Shown here in pieces: positions 4,158-63,816 of a stretch of DNA of 64,000 nucleotides. Under the pieces are notes generated by a model that saw only the letters and a program-made list of their open reading frames with translations, was not told where the DNA came from and did no database searches. Origin of the DNA: Balanoglossus misakiensis (Eukaryota > Animalia > Hemichordata); contig CM082597.2 of NCBI GenBank assembly GCA_040954595.2, positions 6,597,849-6,661,848 on the forward strand. Direction: 5' to 3'. Every line of letters begins with the position of its first letter. Within the stretch, counting starts at the first letter, position 1. The position numbers were made by a program, and so were the translations under genes.

Positions 4158-4188
<31 letters not shown>

Positions 4189-40500: not shown

Positions 40501-41400
40501 AGTGTAGACATCAACCATGTGTTGATCAGACCTTATAAGGTCTGTTGCCATACACAGATGGTCCACACAATCGACAAATAAGCCACTTTCATGTCCCCAA
40601 GTAACATTTACATCCAGGCATTTTCGGTATGGGTTAACAAGTTTGAACTTCAACTCTGGAACAGTCTACTATGCTATTGAATGTTATCATTATGATTCAT
40701 CCTTGAAGGAAACATATGAATTTCGTCTATATGTACTTATGTATGATGCACGTAAGGGGTCATGCAATTGGCTTAATAGGATAATGAATTCGAAAGAAAT
40801 GTGCATAATATTAATCGGACACACTTGGTTTGTTTTTCTGTACTACTGATGTTAGTACTAGTGAGCGTTGCCACTAACCAGGGTAGTACTAGTATAAGTA
40901 GAATATTTAAACGAGTAACGCAAAAGCCATATCCATCGAGAAATGAAGTCAAGCTTGTGTCACTTTTACTATTTCAGAAACATTTCAACGGAGCATTCTT
41001 GCTTACTGGCGGCACACTGAACAAGATACCCGCTGAATCAAGAGGCGATTCTGAAGCAGAGATATCTGAACCAGTCGGTGAAGTGCCTGATGTGTCAGAT
41101 GGATCCAAACTTGACACACGTGGAAACGCGCAAAGAATGAAAGAAGGCGAAGAAGAGCAAACTGCACCCGTGAATGTGTCGGGTGAACATGGCACCCAAA
41201 AAAGGCAACGCGATCTCTGCACAGAATTAAAGCTGTCAGGACTCTCCGCCTTCCTGGAAGGCCAACACAAACGCGACGGCACAAATGATTCGGGCCACGT
41301 GCCTGAAATTGTCAGTCGTGACATATCAATGTTTAAGGTGTTAATCGACAGCTTGAAAGCAGAGAGTAATCATCACCCTGCATCAGTTGAAAAGCCTTGA
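16483..41400 (+). CDS. GRL101-like LDLa/LRR-containing rhodopsin-class GPCR with mosaic lectin-rich ectodomain and pseudokinase-like tail (~1920 aa, 28 exons)
   Basis: The exons join in frame: 16483-16552 (signal [17 protein letters not shown]), 16667-16858, 17723-18010, 18234-18485, 19696-19818, 20561-20839, 21909-22255, 27167-27338, 27918-28190, 28587-29009, 29155-29355, 29668-29749, 30173-30315, 30944-31066, 31391-31501, 31721-31852, 32253-32372, 32892-33032, 33441-33557, 34512-34631, 34860-34962, 36149-36217, 36605-36676, 37930-38001, 38117-38188, 38754-39763, 40295-40539, 40978-41400. Total 5775 nt with consistent phases and no stop seen. Additional small exons are possible. Confidence 0.8.
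16667..16858 (+). CDS. GPCR exon: trefoil (P-type) domain
   Basis: [36 protein letters not shown] fits the trefoil C..R..CG..C..CCW..C pattern. Confidence 0.75.
17723..18485 (+). CDS. GPCR exons (17723-18010, 18234-18485): divergent F-type lectin / galactose-binding-like domain
   Basis: YNVA...ALNDG...CFATT...CG...VFC...LVYEIEVY; the N- and C-terminal hallmarks of the fucolectin fold are present but divergent. Confidence 0.55.
18678..19447 (+). mobile_element. Helentron-associated non-autonomous element (HINE-like) with ~3.5 internal ~123-bp tandem repeats
   Basis: TTTTTAGCTCTGCTG start, complementary CAGCAGAGCT near the 3' end, then a GACCGACAGGTC hairpin; tandem units at ~18805-19260. Confidence 0.6.
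19696..19818 (+). CDS. GPCR exon: EGF-like domain
   Basis: [33 protein letters not shown]. Confidence 0.9.
19940..20500 (+). repeat. Perfect (GTTTT)n pentanucleotide array, ~560 bp
   Basis: directly visible. Confidence 0.98.
20561..20839 (+). CDS. GPCR exon: Link (hyaluronan-binding-type) module
   Basis: [29 protein letters not shown] resembles the Link consensus C..GA.LAT..QL.AAW..GL..C..GW. Confidence 0.65.
20979..21183. mobile_element. ~205-bp MITE with CACGATT(G/T)GAACTATTT TIRs
   Basis: second copy at 39908-40121; the ends are inverted repeats. Confidence 0.7.
21909..27338 (+). CDS. GPCR exons (21909-22255, 27167-27338): FA58C/discoidin domain split by a 4.9-kb LINE-rich intron
   Basis: [12 protein letters not shown]...KE|VFLVN...[10 protein letters not shown]...IELCG. 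Confidence 0.75.
22377..23010 (-). mobile_element. Decayed L2/CR1-group LINE ORF2 fragment
   Basis: YADD region near 22990; [13 protein letters not shown]; [14 protein letters not shown]...[17 protein letters not shown]; stops and frameshifts. Confidence 0.85.
25160..26940 (+). mobile_element. 5'-truncated, disrupted RTE-X-like LINE (RT + C-terminal Cys motif)
   Basis: [44 protein letters not shown]...[10 protein letters not shown]; several stops and frameshifts. Confidence 0.85.
27918..28190 (+). CDS. GPCR exon: PAN/Apple domain
   Basis: [28 protein letters not shown]...TDYY. Confidence 0.8.
28218..28396 (+). repeat. (TATG)n microsatellite with an internal (TACG)n block
   Basis: directly visible. 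Confidence 0.95.
28587..29009 (+). CDS. GPCR exon: CUB domain
   Basis: [22 protein letters not shown]...CNTDYVKI...GRYC...FISD...GFLAEY. Confidence 0.9.
29155..30315 (+). CDS. GPCR exons (29155-29355, 29668-29749, 30173-30315): C-type lectin domain
   Basis: [13 protein letters not shown]...IYIGLTD..EG.YRW...QPN...ENC...WHDILC...FIC. Confidence 0.9.
30944..34631 (+). CDS. GPCR exons: seven LDL-receptor class A repeats
   Basis: phase-1 exons with DC.D.SDE-type motifs, including the GRL101-type variant [11 protein letters not shown]. Confidence 0.88.
33889..34372. mobile_element. Hairpin-bearing non-autonomous element, Crypton-like
   Basis: 143-bp hairpin at 33889-34031 (AGCAATAACCCC...GGGGTTATTGCT), second palindrome at 34288-34316, then CCAATCAG; superfamily assignment is inference. 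Confidence 0.45.
34860..38188 (+). CDS. GPCR exons: LRRNT (34860-34962) and four 69-72-nt LRR exons
   Basis: [14 protein letters not shown]; phase-2 exons such as [25 protein letters not shown]. Confidence 0.85.
35111..35592. mobile_element. Palindromic 482-bp MITE, TAG termini, 9-bp TSD (AcademH-like)
   Basis: CACAACGTC|TAGTCTAGGTTACCCAGACGCC...GGCGTCTGGGTAACCGAGACTA|CACAACGTC. Confidence 0.8.
36850..37800 (-). mobile_element. Decayed tyrosine-recombinase (Crypton-like) relic
   Basis: Minus strand [34 protein letters not shown] plus a frameshifted TGH.LRATA near 37280-37300; boundaries approximate. Confidence 0.4.
38754..39763 (+). CDS. GPCR exon: hinge + 7TM domain (LGR/relaxin-receptor-like)
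   Basis: YALCC...SSCEDLL hinge, [12 protein letters not shown] (TM2), VCLP (ECL2), WIPII (TM6), TNPLLY (TM7). Confidence 0.92.
40295..41400 (+). CDS. GPCR terminal exons (40295-40539, 40978-41400): cytoplasmic tail with degenerate kinase C-lobe motifs
   Basis: [29 protein letters not shown]...GAFLLTGG...[12 protein letters not shown]; phases fit a GC donor at 39764. Confidence 0.6.
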
Positions 41401-44433: not shown

Positions 44434-47400
44434 CTAAACGTGGCATCGTCCGTCAGATTCAACAACTCCCACCATTGCACTGAAAACAGTCAGGTGATTA
44501 CACAGACACAGGGTAGAATTGAAGTCGGATTTTGGTGACACCTGCAAAAAATCGAGCAGAAAAAAAAACACATATTGACACAGCAGTGGGCGTTTCTTTG
44601 CAAGTGGAACAAGATTAAACACCTGGTTCACGTCCCAGCGTTACTTTTAATAGATAAAGCGCCGTCACGTGAATCAGTACATTTTTAATGTTTTCCACAA
44701 GTTAACATTAATCGTAATATGCACTGATTGCTACTTGTCTTTAGTTTCATTACTTGGAACTACATGGAGCATTTCATTTTGGCCAAAATTTAGAAGAAAA
44801 TAATTGGTATACCTTACAACCATCATTCTGCCAATTATTCTCATCAAAGTAGCTACATCTGTGTTGAGTAGTGAGAACCTTGATGTCAACCCCATGAGCT
44901 GTAGAGAAAAAAAGAATAACAGAACTAACTTCGGTTTCTTCCACGTATGTCATATATAATCAAATGGAGTATCTTTTGAAGTTGTGAAACAGGAATCACA
45001 ATGGAATACTTCGAAATAAGGCCAAATTTTCTAATATTTTAAAGTCAAAATGACCGCCAATATGTGCGTAACCCAACAGAGAAAAAGTAAATTAGTGTTT
45101 TTTTATGATAACAAGTTGATAAATACAGTTTCAGAAGAACCTTAGACACAAGGCAAAATTTTGTATTAGTTTAAATTCAAAAATCACGAAAAAAATGCAA
45201 AAAGTGGCAGCTCTTTGTGCTTTAATGAAATCGCAAGATCGTGGCATAACTTACTATATACATGTTGATTGATGAATTTGACAGTGATATAAACAGCAAA
45301 ACAAAAACACGACATACCACTGGTAAGGTCAAAGGCTATGTAATACAAGCCCGTCCTGGTGATGTTTGCTTCTGATAGAAATATGGATGCTGTACACCCT
45401 GCAAATACCAAGTCAGTTGCATAATGGGAACCATTGTAGACACCGACGGCGTCAAGTCTTTCCAGTGACATGTATGCTGTAGTAGTCTCGAAGACAGGCG
45501 CTGATGCTTCCAGGATGATTTGAAATGCAGAGTAGGCCGATAGCGCCTGCAACGTAAATAATGATATATTGATGCAAGATAAATTTCACACAATGAAATT
45601 TGTGAGGTAAAAGATAACACAGTGTTTGAAATAGCACCAATGTCATTTATACTCATGTTTGAGTTTTGCGCTGTTGATCAAATGGTTATGTAAAAGACTA
45701 GATCAGAAAACATGCAATGATCAGTGAATTTCATATATTATGTAAACATTACCGTTACTGTCAATGCATAGTGAGTGACTCCTTCCCTTTCCACGTATAC
45801 TCCCCTGACGATGCTTTCATTTATAGGTGTCTGATAATTACCAAGCCATACGCCGAGATCCTTGGAAGCATTTTTCACTGAAAAGGGACATGTTTCATGA
45901 TAATTTTAAAACAATGCCAAAACTAAATTCACAAATTGGTCATTAATCGACTTCTGCCCTCCAAGATGGTATGTTTATACAAGAATGTCGCCGGGTTTCT
46001 AGTTAAAGGAATTCGCCATTTCCGGTTTAAATGGTGCGACGTTAACTGGTAAAATATTGAGAGTTCAATGCGAATGTTAGGATACCACTGATGGCTTTAA
46101 TGAAAACCAACCCTTAATCTCATTTCCATCTTCATCTCTGAATTCCAGGGTCAGTATATCGGTAGTGAAGCCATCTGTCCTATTTGCTAATCCGTGGGGG
46201 TTCCCACCGAAACGGAAAATCTAATTGTAATTAAAAAAAAAAACTTACTTTAATTATTCCTCGAGCACCAGAACGCATTATGATAACAGCAGAATTGTAC
46301 ATAAAACCAAAGATCGCCATTAGAAATGTTTATGGTCCTAAATTGTAAAAAATTACAACGGTTGCATTGACACAGATATCAGCCTAAAGTTCATCCCATA
46401 TAAACGCGACAGCTGCCCAGGACGTCACATTTACGTTAACTAGCGGCAAATGGTTATTCAAATATCCATATACAAGAATAGAGTAATGTTTTTATATAAA
46501 CAGACGTTATATTTTTCTTAATATTATTAAAGTTGTATACGGACCATTCTGTTCAAGACTGTGTCCCGCGACAATTGTGGAAACATACTGTCTGCTGGTG
46601 GAATATTGAATCCACTTCCATCTCCAATCATTATGGTGACGTTGCACAATTCCTGCGCAAAGTTCTTTTCCAAATGCAGCGCAAGAGATGATGTTTTCAC
46701 GATGAGTGGTCCATCTCCACAATGAGTCTTGTTCAGTATAAACATTGATAACTGGTCGAATACTTTCGTTGTTATCTTTGTCAGGTGATTTGCCTGCCCA
46801 GGATTCAGCTTCTCGTTCGGATTGGCGTCAAATAGGGATTGCATTCTGTCTATCACCTTTTGCATAACATTCAGTGTTTCTGAAATATGTAAACATTGGC
46901 ATTTAAAACTATCTCACTCTGTCTGACTGTCTTTCTCGACTTCTAATTCAGTGTGTCATTCATCATTGAACACGTCCAATGCTCGATGTTTCTCTAAGCT
47001 ACATATAAGATATTTGACGGTCACCAATAATTTGCATGATTTGTGGAAACAAACGAACTATAGTTGATGCATTTTCGGTAAGCTTTATAATTGTAAGGTG
47101 CTGTTTTTTCTGCGTCTGATACCAATATCGTTTTCACATCATTGGATGATATTGAATGTGATGGATACCGATGTCACAGAATCGTCTTGATTAAAACAAT
47201 AAATATCACAATACCTTTTGCAAATAGAATTCTTCCTTTAAATATAACACTTTTCGTTGAAAGGTCAGAGGTTAAAGTGTCTATCTTGTCAATTACACTA
47301 ATACCCTGGAAAAAGAATAGACAATTATTTAGTACGTGGCTTTATAGCTTTATATGGAATCATTTAGTATATAGCTTTAGTTGTCACAAAATAGTCATAT

Positions 47401-50400
47401 CCCATAAGGACCTTTAATAAACGTGTAAAGACAATTACATAGTATGTGGTTTATAGCATTATGTGAAATTATTTTAGAATGTAGCATTAGTTGTCAAAAA
47501 ATGTTCTGTCTCTTCAGTAGATTTCCCTAACTTGGGGCTTTATACAATACAGTGCATTGCGTCAGTCTCAAATGATTGGAATCTTTCTTACCACATCTGC
47601 TGTTCTGAATTCATCGTCACTTATCTTGACCAACCTCTCCCGCAGCAGAAGTAAGTCATCATCTGGATGTTGCAAATGTAAAAGACAGATGATGTGAGAG
47701 GCGCCAAAATATTATGTGTTGTATTTCTAAAATTGAGAAGGCATTCGTGACTTAAAAATAGTACATGAATATATAACATTTTCAGGGGACATCTTTGCTC
47801 CGTTGTCAACAACCTTCTTTCATGTCAGGACGGTCATAAATAATTTCAATGTCATGCATTCTTTTATATGTGTATACTAATGAAATTGGTAAAAATAATC
47901 TCATACAAAAGTCATCGCGAAATCGAACGCTCGAATCATGCAAATATTGTCCATGAAACATTTGGATATTATAATTCGACTCCCTTGTATGTACACGGCA
48001 CTAAGATGACACATGCAAAGGCAAGCAGACGAATATGGTCTTCAAACAACTTGACTATTATTTAGAGATTCACTTAGTTTTAAAGGGACAAAGTCTCTCT
48101 CTCGCTACCCTTTTTCCATCAATTATGTTTGATACAAGACACCGTTTATGTGATTCTACATGTGGATATATAGTGAATCATCGTTCGACCTCACACAACT
48201 TCCACCCCACTTGCAGACACTAGAGTGAAAAACTCGCCAAAATGTATAATGGGTGTTTATCATCTAATCATTTTTGACGAGATTTTTACTCTCATATCCT
48301 ACAAACGGGGTGAAAGTTGTGTGTGGTCGAACGTTCATTCACTATATATCAAACATATATCAAACATAATTGATGGAAAGAGGGCAGCGAGAGAGAGAGA
48401 GAGACTTTGTCCCTTTAACCCTATATAACCCAACGGAATGTTCATGTCCAAACTGAAGTTTAGGCGCTGCAATAATTTCAGTCATTGTTCCTTCTCTTCC
48501 TATACACTGCAGGACCATCATTTAACCGTCTCGTTGCGGAACAATACAACTTTTGTTTCAATTATCCATTTACCAAAAGCAACAAGAGGTGGTCCATTAC
48601 ACATACGGGCATTTCCAATGTGACTCCCTTCCAACGCGGCTAAATGTAGTTACCATGTGTATGCATTTGTCGACTTTCCATGCATCATGGCATATGTTGT
48701 ATGTATACACACCACAGAACTACACAGGTGGTCAACTATGCAGGAAAGGCTGATGTCCCAACTACTTACTTTTATCCTCGCAAACAACCCTTTGAACGTC
48801 TCCGCAGTTTTTAGTGTACCAACTGAATGTTCTCATAGAGCTACAACTGTATAACAAAGTATTGTTTAAGACTTGTACAATGATTACTGTATAGTGTCAA
48901 TAGTGATCTCTACAGAATGCGGGTTGGTCATAAGGCCAAATTTTGCGTTATTTGAATAAAATCATTAACCATGAAGCATACCCTGGCCTAGTTTTCCAAA
49001 ATCGTTCAATATAAAAACTCAATCTTGACATGGGCAGAGTTCCGATTACTTTCCTACATCCACTGTCTTTCATGTTGTAAGGCACATGTTGGAATTGTAA
49101 TGCAATCAGCGTTAGCTGTAAAGTATCATGCTAAAATTGTGCTTTGCAATTCAGACGATATGGCAGATTAAGTTGACAAAATACCAGAAATAGTGCAAAA
49201 TACTGATTGTAACCTTTAAGATAAGAAACACGTGTTGCAACAAGCATACACACATTTAACTGCCATCATTTCTCCAATGTAATCTCGCAAGTTCCAACGC
49301 CTATGACAGCTAGAGTTAAAATCATTAACGAAATGGAAAAACATGCATACGGTTCTAGCAACGCGGAAAACAGCGTGAACAAAGAGTGACTCACTCTGCG
49401 TAAATGCACGATCCGACTTCAAAAGCCTGGTTGGCCGCAAAAGGCGTGTGTTCCAATATTAAACCACTGGCTGTCTTGACATTGCCATCTGCCGCGATGA
49501 TAGCATCAATCCATGATGTTATCCATGGAACGCCGTTACAGTACTGGTCGAAATCCCATACGGTTGTGTCGGTTAGAAGACGTAATCCAGACTTTTCACA
49601 TACCTGGTATGCATCCATTGCGCTCACCCCGTAACTCGTAGTTAAGTCGAAAGAAGCTGCAAATGAGATAAACGTAATTTATTTCCCTTAAAATCCCCTA
49701 GAGCTGCCACTTTTTGCATTATTTTCATGATTTTATTTTCCAACTTAAATTAGTCAATCTAAATAAGTTTATTGATAGGTATACATGAACATCTTATCGA
49801 TGCCCGATTGTGACTGCATGTTGCACTTTTGAACACGCCTTATATTAAACAGGTGCCGCACCGATTTAATCAGACTCCATAGAAACAGTACGCAGCTATC
49901 GTGGTATGCGTCGCCAAGAGATGACAAACTGATTCAAATGCAAGTAATATGGCTTTTAGCCTAATGGAGAGGATTTTAGAGGATAGGGAATATATTTGAA
50001 GTATTTTACTGCGGAAATAATGTGAAATTTGGCAGCTATAGGGGCTTTAAAATAAATGCCTATAATGATTTGTTGTCTCTAATTAAGCGTTTATTTGTCG
50101 TCTGTATTTAAGAAAAACGGCGAAAAACACCGATAAGTATCTACATATATTTCGTAAATAAAACAAATACATGTTGTATCAATTTAAGAAGGTGATTGTT
50201 TCATATACATAAAGAGGCAAATGTTATAAAAATACATAAATTAAAAACGTGTCTTTCCACTTGAACAAACTAAGATGGGTCGATCAGTCATAAGAAAAAG
50301 TATGAACTAAGTGGCAAAGAATTAATTGAACCATAACTTACTCGTATTTTCACACAAAGCCTCCACAGTAAAGCCGTTGGAACCGTCCATGCCACATTTA

Positions 50401-52432
50401 ATATTTCTCCATGTGCCATACCTGGGAATTGAAACGTCAAGTAATTATATGTTATCTCCACTCATTAACGTCGATCAACCATCAAACAACAATGGAGAAT
50501 TCAATCCACATGATCTTAAATTGACAGAAACAAGAGATAAATTTGTTAGATTGTTGTACCACATTTTGCAGAGCAATATGGACATATCTCACAGTTTCCG
50601 ATTGAATTTTTCCACAAAAGGAGACATTTGTACACACAGTTTTTTCATATTATAATGTAGTTTCAAAACGCTCAACTCACCACAGTAAGAGACACTTTCC
50701 ATCATACTCTGGAGTAAGTGTACTCCAGTTCTTGTGACTCAAAATGTCCCCGTCTCTTGTGACTGCGCGTTCGTTCTTAATCACACGAGCATCTATCCAG
50801 AATCTATTGTGTTGAAGAAGGCCTCGTTCTTCTAAAATGTTTACTATAGCTGCATGTTTTTCTTCGCTGTCATCTTTAACAAGGCGAAGACCTAATCGCT
50901 CACAAAAAATGTAGGCAGAAGGGTGATCCATCGGCCCGAAAATGTGGTAGGTGACGCAACCTGGAAATCAAATCCTTATTCTTATGACAGTCAGTTTAAA
51001 CAATCACAAAATAATAAGATTCATGTGCTCCTGTTTTCAGGCCTAGGTAAGAAATATCAGCAAAGCGGCGAATCTACACCGTCTAGATGGAAAGAAAGGC
51101 TGTCAAGCAGCGAAATCGAGATAATTTAGCTGCGCAAGGGGTTTGTCAAGCAGCAACACCTAGATAGTCTAGCTGCAATTCCCGGGGTTTTTCCCGAAAG
51201 TCCGTGGGATTTCAAAATGGCGACCAGGAGTACAAACACTCGCTAACTGTCAGTTTTTCCTGATATTTATGTGTTTAAAACACAATTTAGGAATAAAAAG
51301 TAGCGCGTTCTAGGACTAGTGAATTTAAAAATAGTTGTGCCAAACGATTTTGTTAAACTCTCAATACTTTTGAAGAAGATAGAAAAAAACTCGGTGTACG
51401 GACAAGTCTAGCTATGCATGGCTGCAGGGCCCTTGTGTCTTAATGCCGGCGATGCCGCCAAGGCATCACCGTAAGATACACAGCCCTGTAACTGTAAGTT
51501 TATCCCGACACTTGTTTATCTACATGGGTAAACACAAAAATTTCAAAAAGCGAGCAGTTCGGACGTGAGGAGAAATTAATCGCGTCATATTTGGTGTCAG
51601 TTAGGAGGTAGAAGTAGAATAGCTGCGGACCGCAGACGCACCAGATTTCTATGGACCTTTGCAAGGGCTGTGGTGGAGGCCGTGTAACGCCACGAACACA
51701 CAGACCTGTTGGTAGGGCTAGACGTTTCCTTGCTCCGAGTTTTTTTCTATCTTCTTCAAAAGTATTGAGAGTTCAACAAAATCGGTTGGCACAACTATTT
51801 TAAAACGCATTGGTCCCTGAACGCGCTACACGTTATTCCAAAATGTTGCCTTCAAACAAGTAAATATCGGGATAAACTTACAGTTACAGGGATGTGTATC
51901 TCGCCGGCCGTAAGACACAAGGGCCCTGAAGCCATGCACAGCTAGAGACGTGTCCGTGCTCCGAGTTTTTTTTCTATCTTCTTCAAAAGTATTGAGAGTT
52001 TAACAAAAACGTTTGGCACAACTATTTTTAAATGCACTAGTCCAAGAACGCGCTACTTTAAATTCCGAAATTTTGCTTTTAAACACATACATATCAGGAA
52101 AACCTTACAGTTAGCGAGTGTTTGTATTCCTGATCGCCATTTTGAAATCCCACGGAATTTCGGGAAAAACCCCGGGAATTGCAGCTAGACTATCTAGGTG
52201 TTGCTGCTTGACAAACCCCTTGCGCAGCTAAATTATCTCGATTTCGCTGCTTGACAGCCTTTCTTTCCATCTAGACGGTGTAGATTCGCGAGTTTGCTGA
52301 TATTTATTACCTAGGCCTGGTTTTGAGGAATTAAAATGTCTTACCTGCTTGCTGCAGTAATGTCACCGACAGAATGACGAATGTAGCGATGAGCGTTAAC
52401 TTTAAGGGTATTTCACGACAATCTCGCAACAT
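44434..52432 (-). CDS. Copy A: secreted 2x C-type-lectin-like + polycystin-1-like GAIN/GPS protein with no TM domain (~646 aa, 13 exons)
   Basis: Exons (-): 52432-52345 (signal MLRDCREIPLKLTLIATFVILSVTLLQQAG), 50960-50681, 50421-50342, 49656-49395, 48846-48770, 47662-47592, 47305-47215, 46879-46545, 46220-46112, 45877-45753, 45546-45318, 44898-44813, 44541-44434; 1941 nt in frame. GPS: CSYFDENNWQNDGCKV...TLCLCNHL|TVFSAMVGVVESDGRCHV*. Confidence 0.8.
48084..48414. mobile_element. Family B Kolobok-like MITE, full-length copy, present only in copy A intron 5
   Basis: TTAA|AGGGACAAAGTC...GACTTTGTCCCT|TTAA. Confidence 0.8.
49688..50050. mobile_element. Family E TTAA-flanked element
   Basis: homologous to 9103-9455. 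Confidence 0.7.
51038..52319. mobile_element. 1.28-kb non-autonomous DNA transposon with ~380-bp TIRs, CAG termini and 5-bp TSD (GTTTT)
   Basis: GTTTT|CAGGCCTAGGTAA...TTACCTAGGCCTG|GTTTT; the empty site GCTCCTGTTTTGAG is in the paralogue at ~61290. Confidence 0.88.
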
Positions 52433-54508
52433 TTTACAGCTTCTCAGGCAAGTCATGGTTGCGAGTTGTGCGGCTAATCTGCGATCAACCTGTATATTAA
52501 AAGCTTGATAAGTTATGCGTGTTTTGCAAAGAATTGTAACTACTGGTTGTGTGAGCAAGGCCGCAGGGAGACGCTATGCCTTGGGATCGTTTGGAACTGG
52601 AACGTTGCTGCGTCAATTGCCCCGCCCCTACACGTTTCTCAAGATAACAAGAATAACGTCTTTGTGTATGTACAAACTTCAACTGCTGAAGGACATTAAA
52701 AGCGCTCAGGGGACTTGACAAATGATTATGTTTTGTAAAGAATTGCAACCGCCGCAGAGAGCATGGGATAAATGGAGACGCTATGTCATGCTCTTTCATG
52801 TTTTGTTAGCAGATACATCCTAGGGGTTGTTCGGTCCAACCAACTGGAACGTTACTGCGTCAATTGCCACTACCCTCGAGATAACAAAAAGATAGTCTTT
52901 GTGCATGTACACACGTTACCTGCTGAAGGGCACAATGAAAAGTGTAAAGGGGTGCATGTTTGAACAATTAAAATTCGTGGGAAATTATATTTGAAAACAG
53001 TATTGCATATATCGAATGACAAGTTTCCCTGGTCTATTGTTTAAATCAAGGAAATACGTACGTGTAAATATCAACTTTAATTCCTATACTGTTTCACCCA
53101 ACTAATGGAATTTCGGCTTATTGTCCTGTAAATATACATTTCTCTTGAGTGTACATGTGATATATATTTAATGTCTTGCCTTTCATGCATTGACCACACA
53201 AATGATAATGCTACTATGCGGTTTCCCAGAGGTTAATCCTCCGGTAAGGGCCCCCTGGATTAGATCTTAAGAGAGTGGCTTTAATTTATTTATGGTCACA
53301 TTTTTATTCTCAAATTCTGTAGTTCTAAAAATACAATTTGTAATATTCTACCGCCTCTCATGTCATCTGCATTTAACATTTGCATTATTCAGATATTGAA
53401 TGACTTCTGCTGCTGCGGGATATGTTGTGACATATGCGAGTATGAATTCAGCACATCTGGTATACAAAAGTGTGTGCAAAATTTACCCAAATACGACATA
53501 CACCCCCCCCCCTCAATATCAACATTCCCAAAATCGATCGTCTCCCACTACGTGAGGAATGCAACATTTTCAAATGCTTTCGACGAATGTTGCAATGATC
53601 GTTAACGTCAAAGGGATTTCACGACAACATTGTAACAATTTACGTCTTCACAGGCAATCCATGGGTGACAAATTTTGCATCTGACCCCAATCAATGAAAA
53701 TTCGGCAAATTGTCCCGCACTTATACATTTCCTTTGAGTGTACGTGTGATATATATTTAATAACTTGTCTTTAGTACATTGTCCACGTCAATAATAATGC
53801 TACAATACGGATTACCAGAGGTTAACCCTTCGGTTAGGGTTCTGAGGTAGACCCTGAAAGAGTGGCTTTAATTTATTTATGGCAACATTTCTTATTCAAA
53901 AAATTGCTATTCTAGAAATCCAATTGTAAGATTTTATCGCCTCTCTTGTCATCTACATGTCACATTTGCATTATTCAGTTGATGACTAACTTCCGCTGCG
54001 GGAGATGTCGGTGAAGATAAATATGTCCAGGAATTCAAAACGGCACATATGGTGAGAAAGTATCTGCAAAATCTACCCAAATACGGCATAGTTTATTCCT
54101 CAAATATCCACATTCCAAAAAAAATCGATTGTCTGCCATTATGTATAGTATGCAAATTTTTCAAAAGTTTTGTAAAGAACCCCATCGAGAACAACAACAA
54201 TAACAACCCCTCCCTCCTTCCCTCCCTCCCTTCCATCCACCAGAGTATCATCAAATGAAGTGTAATTTGATTCGATGGGAAAAGGCGCCATACATACATA
54301 CTGCACTTTAAGTGTACGCTTTAATATCAACCATAATAATCCCGAGTAATCCAAGGCCAACACATACAATTTGTTTTAAAGTTACAGAATATAACTCCAC
54401 CATGATGACAAGTGAAATTATGGGTTATTACAATGGCAAGTGACAGCTTACATGTACATTATTAGTTCAAAACTTGTCCCATAACCTTATTTTGTCACTT
54501 CTCTAGAT

Positions 54509-57500
54509 CTAATGGACGACCCTGCGCTCATCGTGGAATCGTCCATCAGATTCAACAACTCCCACCATTGCACTGAAAACAGTCAGGTGATTACACAGAC
54601 AAAGGGTAGAATTGAAGTCGGATTTTGGTGACACCTGCAAGATATCAAGCAGAAAAAAACGTGATGACAAAGCATTAGGCGTTTCTTTGCAAGTGAAACA
54701 AGATCAAACACCTGGTTCACATCCCAGCGTTAATTTAAACAAGGAAAAGCGCCCTCACGTGAATCAGTACATTTTTTACGTTTACGGTATTTTCCATGTG
54801 TCAGTATTAATTGTAAGATGCAGTACCTAGTTCTGCATTTTAAGTTTTTGTTGCATATTTATCCACAGTACCCACTGAAATCACACTGATTGCCACTTGT
54901 CTTAAATTGCATCAATCGCAAGTACATGGAGCATTTCAACTTTTGCAAAATTTAGAAGAAATTAATTTGTATACCTTACAACCATCATTCTGCCAGTTAG
55001 TCTCATCAAAGTAGCTACATCTGTGTTGAGTAGTGAGAACAGTGATGTCAACCCCATGGGCTGTAGTGAAAAAAAGATATACAGAACTGCGGTTACATCA
55101 ACATATTCCATATAAAACCAACTGGTGTGTCTGTAAGGTAGTGTGCACCCAGAAAATGAAATTCATAATTTTTTGTATTATACTGCTAAAGGCAAAAGAA
55201 ATACAGAACGCATACCACGTGTTTTGTGTACACCTTTGTATGGAGGCCGATTAAACGGGTTGAGCGCCCGTTTAATATATCACTTGATCAAATTGCAACA
55301 TGCAGTCACAATTGGGCATCGACAAGAAGTAAATGTATAACAATCAGTAAGCATATTTAGATAAACATAAGTAAGCATATTTAGATGAACCCATCTAAGC
55401 TCGATAGTAAAATTAGAAAATTGGGAACGCTATTTTAAAACCGCAAGATCGTAGTATAACTTTCTACATATGTACGTTTTTGAAATTAAAAAGAAGCATA
55501 AACAGCAAAAAAAAGAAAAGAAAACATAACTATGAGTTTCAATCAACGATCATTGTGCAATAGTTGTATTAATTATGTAAATACCACAATCTTACCACTG
55601 GTAAGGTCAAAGAATATGGAATACAAGCCCGTCCTGGTGATCTTTGCTTCTGGTAGAAATATGGATGCTGTACACCCTGCAAATACCAACTCAGTTATAT
55701 AATGGAAACCACTGTAGCCACCGACGGCGTCAAGGCTTTCCAGCGACACGTATGCTGTAGTAGTCTCAAAGACAGGCGCTGATGCTTCCAGGATGATTTG
55801 AAATGCAGAGTAGGCCGATAGCGCCTACAACGAGAAATTGAGATAAAGTTAACATAATGAAATTTGTGAGGTAAAGGATAACACTGTGTTTGAAATAGCA
55901 CCAATGTCATTTATACTCATGTTTGAGTTTTGCCCCATTGACCAAATGGTTATGTTAAAGACTAGATCAGAAAACATGTAATGATCAGTGAATTTCATAT
56001 ATTATGTAAAAGATTACCGTTACTGTCAATGCATAGTGAGTGACTCCTTCCCTTTCCACGTATAATCCCCTGACGATGCTTTCATTTATAGGTGTCTGAT
56101 AATTACCAAGCCATACGTCGAGATCCTTGGAAGCATTTTTCACTGAAAAGGTAGATGTTTCATGATAATTTTAAAATAATGCTAAAACTAAATTCACAAA
56201 TTGGTCATTAATCGACTTCTGCCCTCCAAGATGGCATGTTTATACAAGTATGTCGCCGGGTTTCTAGTTAAAGGAATTCGCCATTTCCGGTTTAAATGGT
56301 GCGACGTTAACTGGTAAAATATTGAGAGTTCAATGCGAATGTTAGGATACCACTGATGGCCTTAATGAAAACTAACCTTTAATCTCATTACCATCTTCAT
56401 CTCTGAATTCCAGGGACAATATATATGTTGTGAAGCCATGTGTCCTATTTGCCAATCTGTGGGGGTTACCACCGAAACGGAAAATCTAAATAAAAAAAAG
56501 TTACTTTAATTATTCCTCGAGCACCAGACCGCATAGAAATGTTAATGATCTTATTTTGTAAAATAAAATAAAATGACAATGGGTGCATTGACACAACACA
56601 GATGTCAGCCTATAGTTCATCCCATAAAATGACATCTTACCAGAACGTCACATTAAAGTTAACTGGCGGCAAATAGTTATACGTTTATCCATGTACAACA
56701 ATAGAGCTATGTTTGATATAAACAAACGTTATATATTGTTTCTTATTATCATCGAATTTGTATACGGACCATTCTGCTCAAGACTGTGTCCCACGACAAT
56801 TGTTGAAACATAATATCTGCTGGTGGAATACTAAATCCACTTCCATCTCCAATCATTATGGTGACGTTGCACAATTCCTGCGCAAAGTTCTTTTCCAGAT
56901 GCAGCACAAGAGAAGACGTTTTCACGATGATTGGTTCATGTCCACAATTAGTCTCGTTCAGTATAAACATTGATAACTGGTGGAATACTTTTGTTGTTAT
57001 CTTTGTCAGGTGATTTGCCTGCCTGGGATTCAGTCTCTGGCTCGGATTGGTGTCGATTAGGGATTGCATTCTGTCCATCACTTTTTGCATGACATTCAGT
57101 GTTTCTGTAATATGCAAACATTGGCATTTAAAACTATCTCACTCTGTTTGACTGTCTTTCTCGGCTTTACATCAATGCCCGAAAAATATTAAGTGAGTTT
57201 CATTTCTTGTAACCATTTGGAAAAAAAATGATGGAGTGATAATGGAGTCCTGTCCTCCTACTTTTAATTTAGTGTATCATTCAGCAGTCTGACATGTCCA
57301 ATACTCGATTTTTCTCTAAGCAATACAATCACCAATAATTTGCATGTTTTGTTGAAACAAACGAACTGCAGTTGACGCATTTTCGATACGCTTAATAATT
57401 GCAAGGCCCTATTTTTCTGCATCTAATACAATTATCTCATATACATCTTTGGATGATATTGAATGCGGACGGTGTTGTGATGGATTCCGATGTCAAAGAA

Positions 57501-60500
57501 TCATTTTGGTTAAAACAACAAAATATAACAATACCTTTTGCAAATGTAATTCTTCCTCCAAATATGACACCTATATTTGAAAGGTCAGAGGTTAAAGTGT
57601 CCACCTTGTCAATTACACTTATGCCCTGGCAAAAGAATATACACTTACATAGTCATAGTATGTGGTTAATAGCATTACATGTATGTGGAATTGTTTAGTA
57701 TGGAACATTTTCAAAAATGTTCTATCTCTCATGTGGATTTCGCTGACTTGTGGCTTTATATAACACAGTGCATTACATGAGTCTTAAATGATTGGAACCT
57801 TTCTTACCACATCTGCTGTTCTGAATTCGTCGTCACTGATCTTGACCAAACTCTCACGAATCAGAAGTAAGTCATCATCTGAATGTTGCAAATGTGAAAT
57901 TCAGATGGCGTGAGAGGGGGCAAAGTATTATCAATTGAATTTCTAAAATTGCGAAGGCACTAATGACTTAAAATAGCACAGGAATATATTACACATTCTC
58001 TAAGGAGACGTCTTTGCCAGTCAATGCCAAATTATCCATTTACCGAAAACAACAGGTAATCGTCCATTATACATATTTTCAATGTGACTCCCTTCCACGC
58101 GGATAAATATATATTTACAATTAAAGTGTATGCATTTGTCGACTTTGCATGTATCATGGCGTATGTTGAATGTATACACACCACAGAACTACACAGGTGG
58201 TCAAATGTGTAGGAAAGGGGTAATTTAAGAACGAGATTAATCGCTGATGTCTCAAAATACTTACCGTTATCCTCGCAAACTAAATCCAGTGGTCTGTTAC
58301 AGTCTCTAGTTAACCATTCACATTTGTCTGAGGTTGGGACACACCTGAATAAAAGATTCACTGTTAAACGCTTATTGAAGTTAATGTCTACAATGGTCAC
58401 TGCACAGTGTCTATATTGATAATTATACGTGTGTAGAATGATCTCTATAGGATGGCCTCATGACCAACCTGCAAAATTTGCATTAATGAATAAAATCATT
58501 AACCGCGCTGCCACACCCTGGCTTAGTGTTCTAAAATCGTTATGAATATTTAAAATAAAATTTGGTATGGGCATGGTGCCGATAAATTTCCTACATCCAC
58601 TGTCTACTATGCTGTAAAACGCATGTTGGAATGATATTGCAGCCAGCGTTAGCTGTAAAGTATCCTGCTCACATTGTGGTTTGCGATTCAGACGATATAG
58701 CAGGTAAAGTTGATAAAATACCAGAAATAGTGCAAAATACTGATTGTAACCTTTAAGATAAGAAACACGTGTTGCAAAAGCATACACACATTTAACTGCC
58801 ATTATTTCTCCAAGGCAAAACATAAAACTCAAACTTGACAAAATACCAGAAATAGTGCAAAGGTAGTGATCTTTAGCAGCAGAGAGTAACCTTTGGGATA
58901 AGAAAACGTAACAATACACACATATTCAAATCATTCAACTGCCATCATTTCTCCTATGTAATCTCGAAAGTTGGAACTCTATGACAGTTAACGTCATGAA
59001 AGAAATGTAAAACTATGTCTTCTGTGTGGCACTAAGGACAATAGCTTGAACAGACAGCGACTCACCTTACGTAAATACACCACCCGACGACAAGATTCTG
59101 GGCGGGGGCATAATGGGAGTGTTCCAGTATTAAACCGCTGCTTGTCTTCACGGTGCCATCTGCCGTGATGGTGGCGTCAATCCAAAATCTTGGCGTGTAT
59201 GCATCACAAATGGACACACAATACTGGTCGATGTTCCATTCAGTGGTGTCAGTCAGAAGACGAAGCCCACTCTTCTCACATAGCTGGTATGAAGACATCA
59301 TGCTCGCCCGTGTGGGAATTAAGTCTAAAGATGCTGCATATTGGGGAAAAAAGTCATTTCTTTCCCGTCAAATTCGAATACGCAAAAAGTATATTTTGTT
59401 TTGGTGCAATTAAAGGCATATAAGCTGCAACTTTTGGGATAATTATCATAATTTTTGTTTCAAATTATTTATCTAAATAAACCAATACATTTTGACCACT
59501 TAAAGAAAAAAAATGCTATGAATTGACTCTTATCCATAGCTAAAGGAAACTTGAAGATTAATAATTTAAGCATTTCATCACATTCAGTGCATTATTTTCA
59601 GAAACGGAGCACTAATCAGAACAAGTCATAAAATATGCAAATTTGCCTTGCATTGATTAGAAATAGGCACAGTATTTTTAAATACAGTATAATTGATATA
59701 GAAACAGTTTGGCTGACTATTTCAATTAAATTTGGTGCAGGAACTCGGGATTCGAAGGGCTAACTGCCCAAATTAGTTAAATATGCAAATTATTCATAAT
59801 TAACATGACACTGCTAAATGTCATACAAAATAGTCAGATTCCTGTCGTATCAACATTTCTAGCATGTTTCATCAAATTCGGTACATATATTTCACAAATA
59901 TAGCACTAAACAAAACAGGTTCATAAAATGCAAATGAGCTGTAAGTTATTACTAAATGCAGCTTAATAGACGTGAAAACAGTATCTAGAGATTCATCGGA
60001 TTTGCTGTATGAGCTCTGGATCGTTTGAGGCCGATTGATTAAAATCATTAAATCTGAAAATTAGCCATTAATTAACATTTCATTGCTAAATTTCTCATAA
60101 CACAGCCACATGTCGGTCACATCAATATCTGTAGCAAATTTCATCAAATTCGGTGCAGTAATTTCGGAAATATAGCATAAATTAGAAAATGTCATTAAAT
60201 ATGCAAATAGGCCTAAGCAGGTAATCGACCACATACAATACCATTATAACCTCGTGAGATACTGAATCACGTGAGTAAAATGTTATAGAATACCAAAAAA
60301 CATGATAGGTTAGGTCACTCGCCAGGAACAACCGTGAACTTGGTTAAAAGATCTTCATTAAACTGTAACTTACTTGCATTTTCACATAAAACGTTATGGA
60401 GGCGCGAACACTCAAAATAGCCCCTCTCTTTTCTGTGAATTAAAAAGTTTTGAAAGTATATTAAAGTTTCACCCCTTAACGCAAGTCAACCCGTACATCT

Positions 60501-61438
60501 GACAAACTATATTGAAACGTTTTCTACATGTTCCCTTTAACTTTATTAAGACACGGAGTTATTTAATAATAAGGTCAACTTGATCTAAAATTTAGAAAAA
60601 ATAGGCAAATGTGGGTAAATGTTTTACCACATTTTGCAGAATTTTCAGATAAAGCTTGGTGTTCAAAAGTAACGTTGATAGAAAACTGGACATATATCAA
60701 AGTTGCAGATAGAAATTTCCCATAAACTCGAGGTATATGGGTGTGCAATTGTCAATAATGTTCTTCTGGAGACATTGCCGATTGTAACATCTGGATATCA
60801 TTAAAATGTAAATTAATTCTGTCCCCACTGATATATTTTTACAGATTGCATGTCTCTGCACTGGCTCGACTGTGACTGATTAAAGTTAAGCTATATAAAA
60901 ATGACCACAAAGACATTATTTTTCATATTTAAATATATTGTCAAAACTCTCAACTCACTTTATTGCGGCGCAATTTCCCCATTTCAATTGAACCTGCGGC
61001 TGGAAAGTCAAAATTTCCCCATCTCCTGTGACTACGCTTCCGTCGTCAATTAACAGTCCGTCTATCCAGTACCATATGTCTGCGATGCCTCGTTTCTCTA
61101 AAGTGTTTACTATAGCTGCGTTTTTTCTTTCACTGTCAACTTTAACAAGGCGAAGACCCAATCGCTCACAAACCGTGTAAGCTGTAGCGTGATCCGACCA
61201 CCCGCGAAAGATGTTGCAATCTGGATATCAAATCGTTATTCTTATTACAATCATTCATTTACCAATAACACGATGATAAGACTTATGAGCTCCTGTTTTG
61301 AGCAGCTTTAGACTTTCTGAACGTGCACAAATCCAAAATTAGTGTCTTACCTGCTTGCTGCAGCAATGTCACCGACAACATCACGAATGTAGCGACGAGA
61401 GTCAACGTCGAAGGTATTTTACCACAATCTTTTAACAT
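54509..61438 (-). CDS. Copy B: secreted 2x C-type-lectin-like + GAIN/GPS protein with no TM domain (~642 aa, 13 exons)
   Basis: Exons (-): 61438-61351, 61220-60959, 60432-60374, 59333-59066, 58344-58265, 57878-57808, 57625-57535, 57104-56770, 56485-56377, 56142-56018, 55824-55596, 55060-54975, 54634-54509; 1929 nt, same phases as copy A; ends CLCNHL|TVFSAMVGVVESDGRFHDERRVVH*. Confidence 0.8.
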
Positions 61439-62314
61439 TTTACAGCTTCTCAGGCAAGCCACAGTTGAATGCTTTGCGACTAATCTGCGATAATCTAATA
61501 TATGAACAATTTGACCAAATATGCGTATAACCCAAGAGTGTACATGTGATCTATATTTGAAAACTTGTCTTTAGTGCATTGTCCACGTCAATAATAAGGC
61601 TACAATACGGATTCCCAGAGGCTAACCCATCGGTTAGGGTTCTGAGGTAGATCCTGAAAGAGTGGCTTTAATTTATTTATGGCAACATTTCTTATTCAAA
61701 AAATTGCAATTAGAGAAGTCCAATTGTAAGATTTTATCGCCTCTCACGTCATCTACATTTCACATTTGCATTATTCAGATGATGACTAACTTCCGCTGCG
61801 GGAGATGTCGGTGAAGATAAATATGTCTACGGCACATATGATACAAACATATCTGCAAAATATACCCATACTGCATAGTTTATTCCCCCTAATATCCACA
61901 TTCCAAAAAATCGATCGGCGGGCACTATGTAGAGTATGCAAACATTTTCAAAGGCTTTGTATAACCTATCTAATCACGACATACTCACTCAAGAAATACT
62001 CACTCACTCACTCACCCACCCAACAAACCAACCACCCACCCACCCGTTAAAATTGCTTTGTCTGATAACTAAAGATTTTATCCTTAGGGCGGCCAAAAAT
62101 AGCATTTTCATCTAGACAAGGAATGGACAACGGAGAGATTTAAAAACAGACTATTTTTGTTTTCTGTTCCATAGATCAGGGATACATTTTCTGTTTTCAT
62201 TACGGTATTTGTCAGGTGAACACATTAGCTACATTGTAAGTATAGAAATATGAATTTAGATTCTCACCAAAATTCATTTCGCAGCTATTACAAATTACTA
62301 TGCAAATTTTACAT

Positions 62315-62372
62315 ATTCATTCATTCATTCATTCATTCATTCATTCATTTAATCATACATACATACATACAT

Positions 62373-62463
<91 letters not shown>

Positions 62464-62533
62464 TACACACATACATACATACATACATACATACATACAT
62501 ACATACATACATACATACATACATACATACATA
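62315..62533 (+). repeat. Compound (ATTC)n/(ATAC)n/(AC)n microsatellite
   Basis: directly visible. Confidence 0.95.
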
Positions 62534-63708
62534 CGAAGTATGCTGTTGGACTGGTCCGATACAAAGTGCTCAATACAAAAGTAGAGTGGAGTATAAAGTA
62601 GGGTAGTAGGAGAAACGAAAGGCGGTAAAATCTCTACAACGCTGTTTCGCGAGTCACTGGGCTCACTCATCAGGAGACCAAACTGGCGAAAATGCAAGGG
62701 GGAAGGCGCGTTCATATGCAGGTACGCAGATGGTGGAATGTATGTTGGGGTGGGCCGTTTTGCATAACAATATGTGTAGCTGCATGGTTTGACTCAATTA
62801 ATAGAAATTCTGCATATGTCTTGTAAATATACATCTCTCTTGAGTGTATAGGCTTATATATGATATACAATGTCCTGCTTTCCATGCATTGTACACGGCA
62901 ATGATGCTACAATACAGATTCCCAGAGGTTAGATATTGAGAGAGTTGCTTTTAATTTATTTATGGTCCCTTTTTATTCTCAAACTGTGCAATTCTAGACA
63001 GACAATTTGCCACGTTCCACCGCTTCTCACGTTATCAGCACATTTTCATTATTCAACTGATAATTTACATCTGCTGTGGGATATGTCACAATTACAGAAT
63101 ACTATAACTCCGCCAATTAATGACAAGTACAATAACGGGTTATTACAATGACAAGTGACAGTAATGGTTATTACAAAACATAAAATATTGATCAATGTAT
63201 ACATGTATATATCCTATCCTGGCACATTACAAAGACATGTGTAAATTACATCGAACTATATGATTTTTATAAACCTCCGTCAATGCTCATTTCAGACCCA
63301 TCGGTCCTTGTGTTTCTGTCCAGCGTAAGCGCACTGGGCAAGAACAATGTAAGAGTGCGAAAAGTGTCGCAGTACAATTATGAAACAGTGTATTACTCCG
63401 CCTGACTACAGACAAACACAATCAATCATAGACGTACGCAACCTAACAAAATGCAATTCTTTTTTAAACATCAAATTTTCATCCAAACGCTTCTCTTTCG
63501 GACACCTCTAGCTAAATATACATCTATGCTTTTTACTTGATTCATTATCACCTAAAAACTCTTTCCAAAACTGCAATATGAACATTTCTTGCTTCATAAA
63601 GTCTAAAAAACACGAACACATTTTGAATGCTACATCATCTGTTTAGAACTCGCCCGAAAAGCTTATCTTGTCACATACATGTATGTAGACCCAAAGGTCG
63701 CCCCTGTG

Positions 63709-63816
63709 CTAAACGTGGAATCGTCCATCAGATTCAACAACTCCCACCATTGCACTGAAAACAGTCAGGTGATTACACAGACACAGGGTAGAATTGAAGT
63801 CGGATTTTGGTGACAC
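63709..63816 (-). CDS. Copy C: terminal GPS exon of a third paralogue (remainder beyond window)
   Basis: cag acceptor then VSPKSDFNSTLCLCNHL|TVFSAMVGVVESDGRFHV*; flanks homologous to copies A and B. Confidence 0.8.
   Translation of the reverse strand: MSPKSDFNSTLCLCNHLTVFSAMVGVVESDGRFHV

Follow-up and report, generated by a model that had tools for sequence, protein, structure and literature searches.

The closest described relatives of the genes analysed here are the PKD1-like proteins (polycystin-1, PKD1L2 and PKD1L3), which carry a C-type-lectin-like domain at the N terminus, an extra beta-sandwich in the GAIN domain, as reported for PKD1 GAINs in PMC11697300, and an HL|T GPS. The family described below resembles them in all three features but lacks TM1, PLAT, the 11-TM core, the channel domain, REJ and the PKD repeats, and the window's proteins end 18-24 residues past the cut. 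PKD1L3, too, is without a REJ domain, as described in PMC1934368. According to the same paper, the sea-urchin protein SpREJ1 is a shortened member of the PKD1 family with a GPS and lectin domains under positive selection, yet it keeps the REJ domain and one TM segment; SpREJ10, in turn, has no predicted TM segment but also no GPS. Neither, as portrayed there, is a GPS protein without a membrane segment.

Ectodomains without a membrane part are also known from adhesion GPCRs (aGPCRs), where about half of the genes yield soluble N-terminal isoforms straight from their transcripts (PMC6667449, PMC11039983). These arise, however, by alternative splicing or termination in genes whose 7TM is retained, whereas the family presented here consists of whole genes without TM exons, is an expanded family of its own and has a GAIN modelled as PKD1-type. 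Microbial MAIN domains (bioRxiv 10.64898/2026.05.12.724683) likewise place a self-cleaving, GAIN-like domain behind interchangeable adhesion domains without a TM signalling unit; unlike in that system, no anchor is seen in our family. The founding paper on the GAIN domain (Arac et al.) said that an anchorless arrangement does not occur, and our literature search, with most subscription papers outside its reach, returned no description of a GAIN family lacking the TM part. The main text of the chromosome-level genome paper on Ptychodera flava (PMC11175523), the acorn worm in which we found nearly all relatives, makes no mention of polycystin/PKD, lectin, GPS or egg jelly.

Gene structure and domains of the tandem copies

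The window, the whole stretch of 64,000 nucleotides from Balanoglossus misakiensis that we analysed, had been read from its sequence alone as holding three tandem minus-strand paralogues, two of them complete with 13 phase-matched exons. This arrangement was recovered: copies A and B are open throughout, and the last exon of copy C is seen at the window end (Table 1). GT-AG borders are found at 24 of 24 introns of A and B, and the 12 intron phases agree between the copies. Six of the 13 exons differ in length, by 24, 18, 21, 6, 3 and 18 nt, all multiples of three; because these differences are all frame-keeping and dN/dS is 0.61, the gene structure of A and B is not due to chance. The proposed stop shortly after the cleavage site is present in all three copies, 18 (A), 24 (B) and 18 (C) codons past HL|T, and the spacing from the B stop to the A start codon, previously put at 2 kb, measures about 2.05 kb. 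A tblastn search of the window with both copies and all fetched relatives gave no further family exon besides A, B and the last exon of C.

Table 1. Positions of the three gene copies and their parts in the window
Feature	Position	Strand	Details
Copy A, complete gene	44434..52456	minus	13 exons, 654 aa, open frame, all introns GT-AG
Copy A, exons (high-low)	52456-52345, 50960-50681, 50421-50342, 49656-49395, 48846-48770, 47662-47592, 47305-47215, 46879-46545, 46220-46112, 45877-45753, 45546-45318, 44898-44813, 44541-44434		stop in last exon
Copy B, complete gene	54509..61438	minus	13 exons, 1929 nt, 642 aa, no internal stops
Copy B, exons (high-low)	61438-61351, 61220-60959, 60432-60374, 59333-59066, 58344-58265, 57878-57808, 57625-57535, 57104-56770, 56485-56377, 56142-56018, 55824-55596, 55060-54975, 54634-54509		stop in last exon
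Copy C, last (GPS) exon with stop	63709..63816	minus	rest of gene past window end
Exon 1, predicted signal peptide	A 52345..52456, B 61438-61351	minus	hydropathy only
Exons 2-5, two C-type-lectin-like domains	A 48770..50960 (aa 38-157, 158-270), B 61220-58265	minus	fast-evolving, without EPN/QPD/WND
Exons 6-8, predicted helical GAIN subdomain A and first strands of subdomain B	A 46545..47662, B 57878-56770	minus	mapped from models of relatives; Atlas lead
Exons 9-12, predicted GAIN subdomain B with inserted beta-sandwich, first half of GPS	A 44813..46220, B 56485-54975	minus	models of relatives; PMC11697300
Exon 13, CxC-N-H-L|T-V-F cleavage motif, last beta-strand, short tail, stop	A 44434..44541, B 54634-54509	minus	sequence

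Purifying selection on A and B is supported: over 626 codons dN/dS is 0.61 (bootstrap 0.47-0.77), although values near 0.5, such as that of the GAIN (0.49, 0.33-0.78), speak for only moderate constraint. In the lectin-like part dN/dS is 0.67 (0.46-0.95) and amino acid identity 50%, as against 87% in the GAIN; for exons 9-13 alone the interval, 0.25-1.13, includes 1. It had been argued that the copies are not simple pseudogenes, and open frames together with a dN/dS whose interval stays below 1 agree with this.

For the head of the protein, the label 'lectin' holds at the level of the fold only. Pfam Lectin_C, applied to single exons, matches two of the four lectin exons below cut-off (E 0.0056 and 0.13), but a profile built from the Lectin_C domains of four relatives finds both domains in A and B (E 1.3e-18, 2.6e-5, 8.2e-15 and 1.3e-7). 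EPN or QPD and WND are the calcium-dependent sugar-binding motifs of C-type lectins, and none of them occurs in aa 1-275 of A or B. The homology part of the earlier lectin claim therefore stands, while the sugar-binding motifs are absent.

The proposed canonical GPS fared similarly, as H-L|T and the conserved Cys and Trp are present in A, B and C, but Pfam GPS, with the motif split over two exons, stays below its cut-off (E 0.0008-0.0013); it scores above cut-off in five of the 29 relatives scanned. For the GAIN itself, structures were modelled for two relatives, P0005 and P0038, which are 40-44% identical to copy A. Both models show the expected fold of a helical subdomain A and a beta-sandwich subdomain B, with the last strand predicted, and the top 4 and top 5 Foldseek matches are GAINs, so that the GAIN-like region claimed from sequence is borne out on the relatives' models (P0005 against GPR126: Z 16.9, rmsd 3.0, 213 aligned; P0038 against latrophilin-1: Z 18.1, rmsd 4.0, 234 aligned). 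The lectin part of the P0038 model has a pLDDT below 50, too low to confirm the lectin fold. The best structural matches of these models, at Z of about 14-18, are adhesion GPCR GAINs (GPR126 6v55, latrophilin 4dlq and 8vti, BAI2 8oek, BAI3 4dlo), which differ in having no inserted beta-sandwich and in being followed by a 7TM. In the models a sandwich of about 120 residues is inserted (residues ~204-324 in P0005 and 330-443 in P0038, corresponding to aa ~486-604 of A), whose segments match separate beta-sandwiches with Z up to 8.9, the level of a common fold. An additional beta-sandwich is what has been reported for PKD1 GAINs (PMC11697300), and the models support a PKD1-type GAIN for the family. 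A solved PKD1 GAIN was not among the fold-search matches, and according to PMC11697300 (2025) no experimental structure of one was available. Of the suggested 'PKD1-like/REJ-derived' origin, the PKD1-like half is upheld by these models, but no REJ domain was found: the GAIN directly follows the second lectin-like domain, and 29 relatives gave no REJ match at E 0.05. In the Atlas, exon 8 has GAIN subdomain A as its first match (0.92), a lead only, given its low recognition score, and the clusters nearest to P0005 are unnamed or GPS-bearing (PLAT+GPS 0.85, REJ 0.75); when the PDB was searched by sequence, the sole matches were designed helical bundles and the GPS part of GPR126.

But is there a membrane anchor? 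A 19-residue hydropathy window exceeds 1.6 only at the start of the protein, where the signal-like stretch lies (A 2.15, B 1.93), and with a maximum of 1.56 in the GPS region and C-terminal tail, hydropathy indicates no membrane helix in either copy. The hallmarks of PKD1-like proteins, TM1 right after the GPS, PLAT and a multi-TM core, are absent from the window genes at the genomic level, as is the 7TM domain that follows the GAIN in adhesion GPCRs. The earlier statement that no TM, PLAT or channel exons are seen nearby was supported by Pfam, which found no PLAT, 7tm or polycystin match in 177 ORFs (78 minus-strand ORFs of at least 30 aa between and just after the copies, and 99 further downstream, below position 41000, of at least 55 aa). 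Phase-0 TM-like exon candidates are lacking between the copies; the 44 kb downstream contain three, compared with two in 22.5 kb of the opposite strand used as a control. Where hydrophobic ORFs did occur between the copies, they were rejected as TM exons, being simple repeats or having no scoring phase-0 acceptor.

A wider family in Ptychodera flava

Searching with exon 8 by phmmer returned 35 matches, of which 31 align to the GAIN; four long matches (P0004, P0015, P0017 and P0035) were excluded because they failed to align with the spliced GAIN, and seven records added later bring the set to 38. Nearly all are predicted proteins of P. flava, the sole Glandiceps record ending before the GPS. 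The window genes and their P. flava relatives share 26-47% identity, and the N-terminal domains vary among the relatives (C-type lectin, HYR, F5/8, SRCR, PAN, SUEL, NHL). RefSeq names some of them 'polycystin-1-like protein 2/3', and several models carry isoform X1/X2 labels, which usually imply transcript support. A word-indexed protein search with exon 8 produced no match among 32 candidates, and profile searches recovered one and six P. flava proteins among the best 7985 and 7992 candidates scored; that no TM-bearing or non-hemichordate relative appeared among these is a weak indication that there are none.

None of the 38 records has a hydrophobic window of at least 1.8 after the GAIN start. 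Relatives ending after the GPS were looked for, as the sequence-only reading had proposed, and were found: the GPS exon is reached by 17 records, which represent 15 genes on 11 P. flava contigs told apart by their lengths, and each of them terminates 0-23 residues past HL|T. Seven of these genes keep the last strand, all with H-L-T/S, while eight stop within two residues of the cut site, four of them having lost the His. The two ending states change at least three times on the tree. That eight of 15 genes stop at the cut suggests that the N-terminal fragment is the useful product, and that some members of the family can do without self-cleavage. A further 21 of the 38 records stop earlier, mostly near exon ends, and a signal-like N terminus is seen in only about five of the 15 genes with complete ends, indicating that many P. 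flava models are incomplete; intron read-through may account for some of the ends, and five of the eight short ends (T-stop or K-stop) could derive from a phase-2 donor.

Probable secreted ectodomains and competing explanations

The reading we favour, and hold to be reasonably probable, is that these genes encode a polycystin-1-type ectodomain without its membrane part: since they stop before any membrane anchor, they are likely secreted, predicted to cut themselves at HL|T, and would act as free recognition proteins made of a head and a docking GAIN. A PKD1-like parent gene would have lost everything from TM1 onward, followed by expansion through duplication and swapping of N-terminal domains. 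The functional unit would be the equivalent of a shed N-terminal fragment, with the variable lectin-like head likely binding outside ligands and the conserved GAIN module docking on a shared partner; predicted cleavage would remove just a tail of 18-24 residues, a step that roughly half of the relatives would skip, as their proteins finish at the cut site. The soluble N-terminal fragment of PC-1 activates PC-1/PC-2 polycystin channels (PMC7728438), and by analogy the most likely partner would be a membrane polycystin complex, the weakest step of the proposal.

The secreted architecture is shared by a reading that differs only in the partner, namely pattern-recognition or mucus proteins that act alone, with the GAIN as a stable stalk or secretion aid. 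The N-terminal repertoire of C-type lectin, SRCR, F5/8, SUEL, PAN and HYR domains is characteristic of recognition and matrix proteins in invertebrates, the heads have changed far more quickly than the GAIN, 7-10 N-glycosylation sequons are present, and the catalytic His is lost in four relatives; canonical calcium or sugar-binding motifs are nevertheless missing, and retention of the 380-residue GAIN in every member that reaches it suggests that it has a job of its own, leaving this reading unlikely. Could the stops instead be intron read-through, with transcripts splicing from the GPS exon into farther TM exons, possibly constant exons common to several tandem cassettes? A candidate phase-0 donor, identical in A, B and C, lies 69 nt from the start of exon 13; its score of 6.2 bits falls among those of the 24 real donors, which run from -0.5 to 10.6. 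In most aGPCR genes the GAIN and TM parts occupy separate exons (PMC11039983), many P. flava models terminate near exon boundaries, and below position 41000 our Pfam scan took in ORFs of 55 aa or more. We consider this quite unlikely, however, as that scan as a whole was empty of TM, PLAT and 7tm matches, two opposite-strand genes fill the downstream 41 kb, and none of the 17 P. flava records runs on to a TM, their tails stopping at many different positions and the records being spread over 11 contigs. Furthermore, the 39 nt past the candidate donor are far more alike among the copies (35-37 of 39 identical) than the following 100 nt (66-79 identities), which weakly suggests that they are coding.

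It is decidedly unlikely, in our view, that we are looking at a birth-and-death family of partial PKD1-like duplicates, mostly decaying, in which the window copies are recent and weakly constrained or non-functional. The early truncations and missing signal peptides among the relatives would fit, as would a dN/dS of 0.5-0.7 and the partial pkd1l3 remnants known in fish (PMC5318412), and the introns in the 3' half, 87.9% identical between A and B over 1638 nt, imply that part of the copies is young or gene-converted. Against decay, both frames are open even though dS reaches about 0.64 across the lectin-like exons, every splice site is intact, length differences and dN/dS are as given above, and the end point is common to the window genes and their P. 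flava relatives. A polycystin/adhesion receptor that acorn worms would have divided between separate genes, in which secreted ectodomains with interchangeable heads plug the empty GAIN groove in trans onto the exposed first strand of a membrane fragment with a gene of its own, strikes us as a long shot. The groove would be emptied by the stop at the cut site or by self-trimming; reassociation and exchange of GAIN fragments have been reported for aGPCRs (PMC12300799; bioRxiv 10.1101/2023.01.12.523854), although the latter preprint remarks that most studies argue against it. If true, one membrane unit could gain many specificities in trans.

Finally, we would like to consider what such a family means beyond this locus. 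PKD1-type GAINs that are small and secreted lend themselves to structure determination. Can a GAIN that lacks its last strand be stable and functional, and what role do shed polycystin ectodomains play? The family may offer natural examples for both questions, as a gene family that consists of ectodomains only and ends just past or at the cut site suggests that the N-terminal fragment can be maintained in evolution in its own right.

Structure and selection of the paralogues

Strand reading and self-BLAST identify two complete paralogues on the minus strand, together with the 3' end of another (table), with no further family exons found in the window outside copies A and B besides the last exon of copy C. 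The sequence-only reading had described two complete, phase-matched copies with open frames that stop 18-24 codons past the predicted GPS self-cleavage site, HL|T, and both points are confirmed: introns of A and B are GT-AG in 24/24 cases with identical phases at 12/12 positions, and the stop lies 18, 24 and 18 codons past HL|T in A, B and C. Hydropathy exceeds 1.6 at a single peak, the N-terminal signal-like stretch. Six of the 13 exons differ in length between A and B, always by a multiple of three. A dN/dS of about 1, which the same reading had named, in combination with a lack of expression, as evidence against itself, was not found: the value is 0.61 (0.47-0.77) overall, although the interval for exons 9-13 taken alone includes 1. 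It is 0.49 (0.33-0.78) for the GAIN and 0.67 (0.46-0.95) for the lectin-like part, with amino-acid identities of 87% and 50%, respectively. The divergence of A and B is one of moderate purifying selection, with heads changing fast. The introns of the 3' half are 87.9% similar over 1638 nt by self-BLAST, so this half is young or gene-converted.

Features of the window, in within-window coordinates
Feature	Position	Strand	Content
Copy A	52456 to 44434	minus	13 exons, 654 aa
Copy B	61438 to 54509	minus	13 exons, open 642-aa frame
Copy C	63816-63709	minus	last exon only within window
GRL101/LGR-like receptor gene, large	17680-41400	plus	F5/8, PAN, CUB, C-type lectin, LDLa exons, then 7tm_1
7tm_1 exon of GRL101/LGR-like gene	38710-39822	plus	
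VWC, VWD and C8 exons	3890-11384	plus	compatible with a BMPER/crossveinless-2-like gene
Broken reverse-transcriptase (LINE-like) fragments	22380-23051	minus	within GRL101/LGR-like gene
Broken reverse-transcriptase (LINE-like) fragments	25137-26732	plus	within GRL101/LGR-like gene

Intron 1 measures 1384 nt in A versus 130 nt in B, and in A only it holds an element (51038-52319) with long inverted repeats (475 nt, 89% identity). The short spacers upstream of A and B (52900-54200 and 61500-63100) contain a block of 300-600 nt in several diverged copies, part of which also appears in an intron of each gene; it may be duplicated promoter or repeat sequence. After the 7tm_1 exon of the GRL101/LGR-like gene, an exon near 40294-40580 resembles the catalytic-loop region of a kinase in degenerate form (weak match to Kdo kinase, E 0.029), so this GPCR may carry a pseudokinase-like tail.

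Predicted fold of the ectodomain

Folds were modelled on two relatives standing in for the window's own proteins. P0005, 44% identical to A across 338 aligned residues and modelled with a mean pLDDT of 79, matches GPR126 (Z 16.9, rmsd 3.0, 213 aligned) as well as latrophilin-3 (Z 16.3) and BAI3 (Z 14.5); in Foldseek, GAINs take the first four places. P0038 is 40% identical to A. Its GAIN has a pLDDT of mostly 85-97, with the last strand predicted at 479-482, and eleven aGPCR GAIN entries match it with Z 13-18. A GAIN fold, whose absence would have spoken against the earlier reading, is thus predicted in both. Each model also has a separate beta-sandwich of about 115-120 residues, corresponding to aa 486-604 of A, which alone aligns to CBM- and GOLD-like folds at the common-fold level (Z up to 8.9). 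This extra beta-sandwich is described as the mark of PKD1-type GAINs in the available text of PMC11697300, and a PKD1-type fold is predicted for the copies; Atlas clusters with GPS, PLAT and REJ, together with RefSeq names, are in line with this type. The proposed lectin domains held in part: both N-terminal domains are C-type-lectin-like by profile, but neither has the sugar-binding motifs EPN, QPD or WND. Separately, the axonemal doublet-microtubule chains 9y6s_9f (Z 13.7), 9fqr_Hn (Z 10.8-13.0) and 8glv_AE (Z 10.6) align across the whole GAIN model, which may mean that a GAIN-like fold also occurs in an intracellular protein of cilia.

Membrane exons and the ends of relatives

But could the genes continue, by unannotated splicing, into transmembrane (TM) exons? 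In exon 13, the GPS exon, all copies share a candidate donor in phase 0, located 69 nt from the exon start. On a matrix derived from the 24 donors of A and B, which themselves score -0.5 to 10.6, it reaches 6.2 bits. However, the 39 nt past it are 35-37/39 identical among the copies, compared with 66-79 identities in the 100 nt after the stop, which mildly favours coding. The claimed absence of TM, PLAT and channel exons nearby was borne out within the ORFs scanned: no PLAT, polycystin or 7tm Pfam family occurs in 78 minus-strand ORFs of at least 30 aa between or just after the copies, or in 99 ORFs at positions 1-41000, where the scan covered those of at least 55 aa. Between the copies, a splice-aware scan detected no TM-like exon in phase 0; downstream, where two plus-strand genes occupy the region, three isolated candidates lie in 44 kb versus two in a 22.5 kb control. 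Long microsatellites at 19900-20500 (5-nt unit) and 62350-62530 (4-nt and 2-nt units) produce spurious ORFs and false hydrophobic windows. We consider hidden splicing quite unlikely.

A phmmer search with exon 8, which encodes part of the GAIN, against 1.84 billion representatives gave 35 matches. Four did not align to the spliced GAIN and were discarded as unrelated; the other 31 aligned at 25-47% identity and include 27 Ptychodera flava RefSeq models, one from Glandiceps talaboti and two fragments. Further searches added seven, for 38 records, all automated gene models, compared here as protein; none has a hydrophobic window of at least 1.8 after the GAIN start. In PKD1-like genes, conservation is highest in the TM and PLAT exons, and none of the 17 records reaching the GPS exon continues into them. 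Merging two isoform pairs leaves 15 genes, and relatives that likewise end after the GPS, sought as a check on the earlier reading, were found: all 15 end 0-23 residues past the HL position, eight within 0-2 residues (five of these short ends fit a phase-2 donor, judged from the protein models) and seven with the last strand retained. A signal-like N-terminus is present in only about 5/15, and 21/38 records end before the GPS exon, mostly close to exon ends.

That the family members are decaying seems quite unlikely to us. H-L-T/S is kept in 7/7 genes with the last strand, and His is lost in 4/8 short-ended genes. A maximum-likelihood tree was built from 24 GAIN regions, those of the 15 genes, of A and B and of seven of the earlier-ending records; along it, the two kinds of ending switch at least three times. 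Catalytic residues kept with the tail and partly lost without it, and a tail repeatedly lost or regained, suggest that selection keeps the N-terminal fragment. The tree places the P. flava relative XP_070568693 as sister of A + B (support 98/96); it has two lectin-like domains as in the copies, then HYR repeats, then the GAIN. N-terminal domains vary among the 29 relatives scanned: Lectin_C, HYR, F5/8, SRCR, PAN, SUEL and NHL.

A probable ectodomain family among known systems

We favour, at somewhat better than even probability, a secreted polycystin-1-type ectodomain family. Its proteins would be secreted, HL|T cleavage would merely trim a short tail, the mature product would be the equivalent of a shed receptor N-terminal fragment, and the variable head would select the ligand. 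Our best guess for the partner is a polycystin complex, since PC-1/PC-2 channels are reported to be activated by a soluble piece of PC-1 that includes the lectin domain (PMC7728438). Secreted proteins with a stand-alone recognition role are an unlikely alternative; taken jointly, the two readings make it probable that the genes encode TM-less proteins under selection.

In the portions of the literature available to us, the GPS is stated always to precede TM1 immediately (PMC3321182). Among sea urchin proteins, SpREJ1, 8 and 9 each carry a single TM, and SpREJ10 has no TM, yet also no GPS (PMC1934368); soluble aGPCR ectodomains are transcript variants of TM-bearing genes (PMC6667449, PMC11039983); and microbial MAIN proteins, which have no signalling unit, are typically surface-anchored (bioRxiv 10.64898/2026.05.12.724683). 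The accessible parts of PMC13197933, PMC12716839, PMC13554239 and PMC5318412 describe no TM-less GAIN family, and our searches of the open-access literature, supplements aside, found no description of such a gene family. All the parts are known; what appears undescribed is a dedicated, expanded family in which they are arranged without an anchor. We propose that these proteins work like a polycystin ectodomain; by the TM/PLAT criterion they fall outside the PKD1 receptor family. At the long-shot end, secreted ectodomains may plug onto a separately encoded membrane fragment, which would give a split receptor many specificities in trans.
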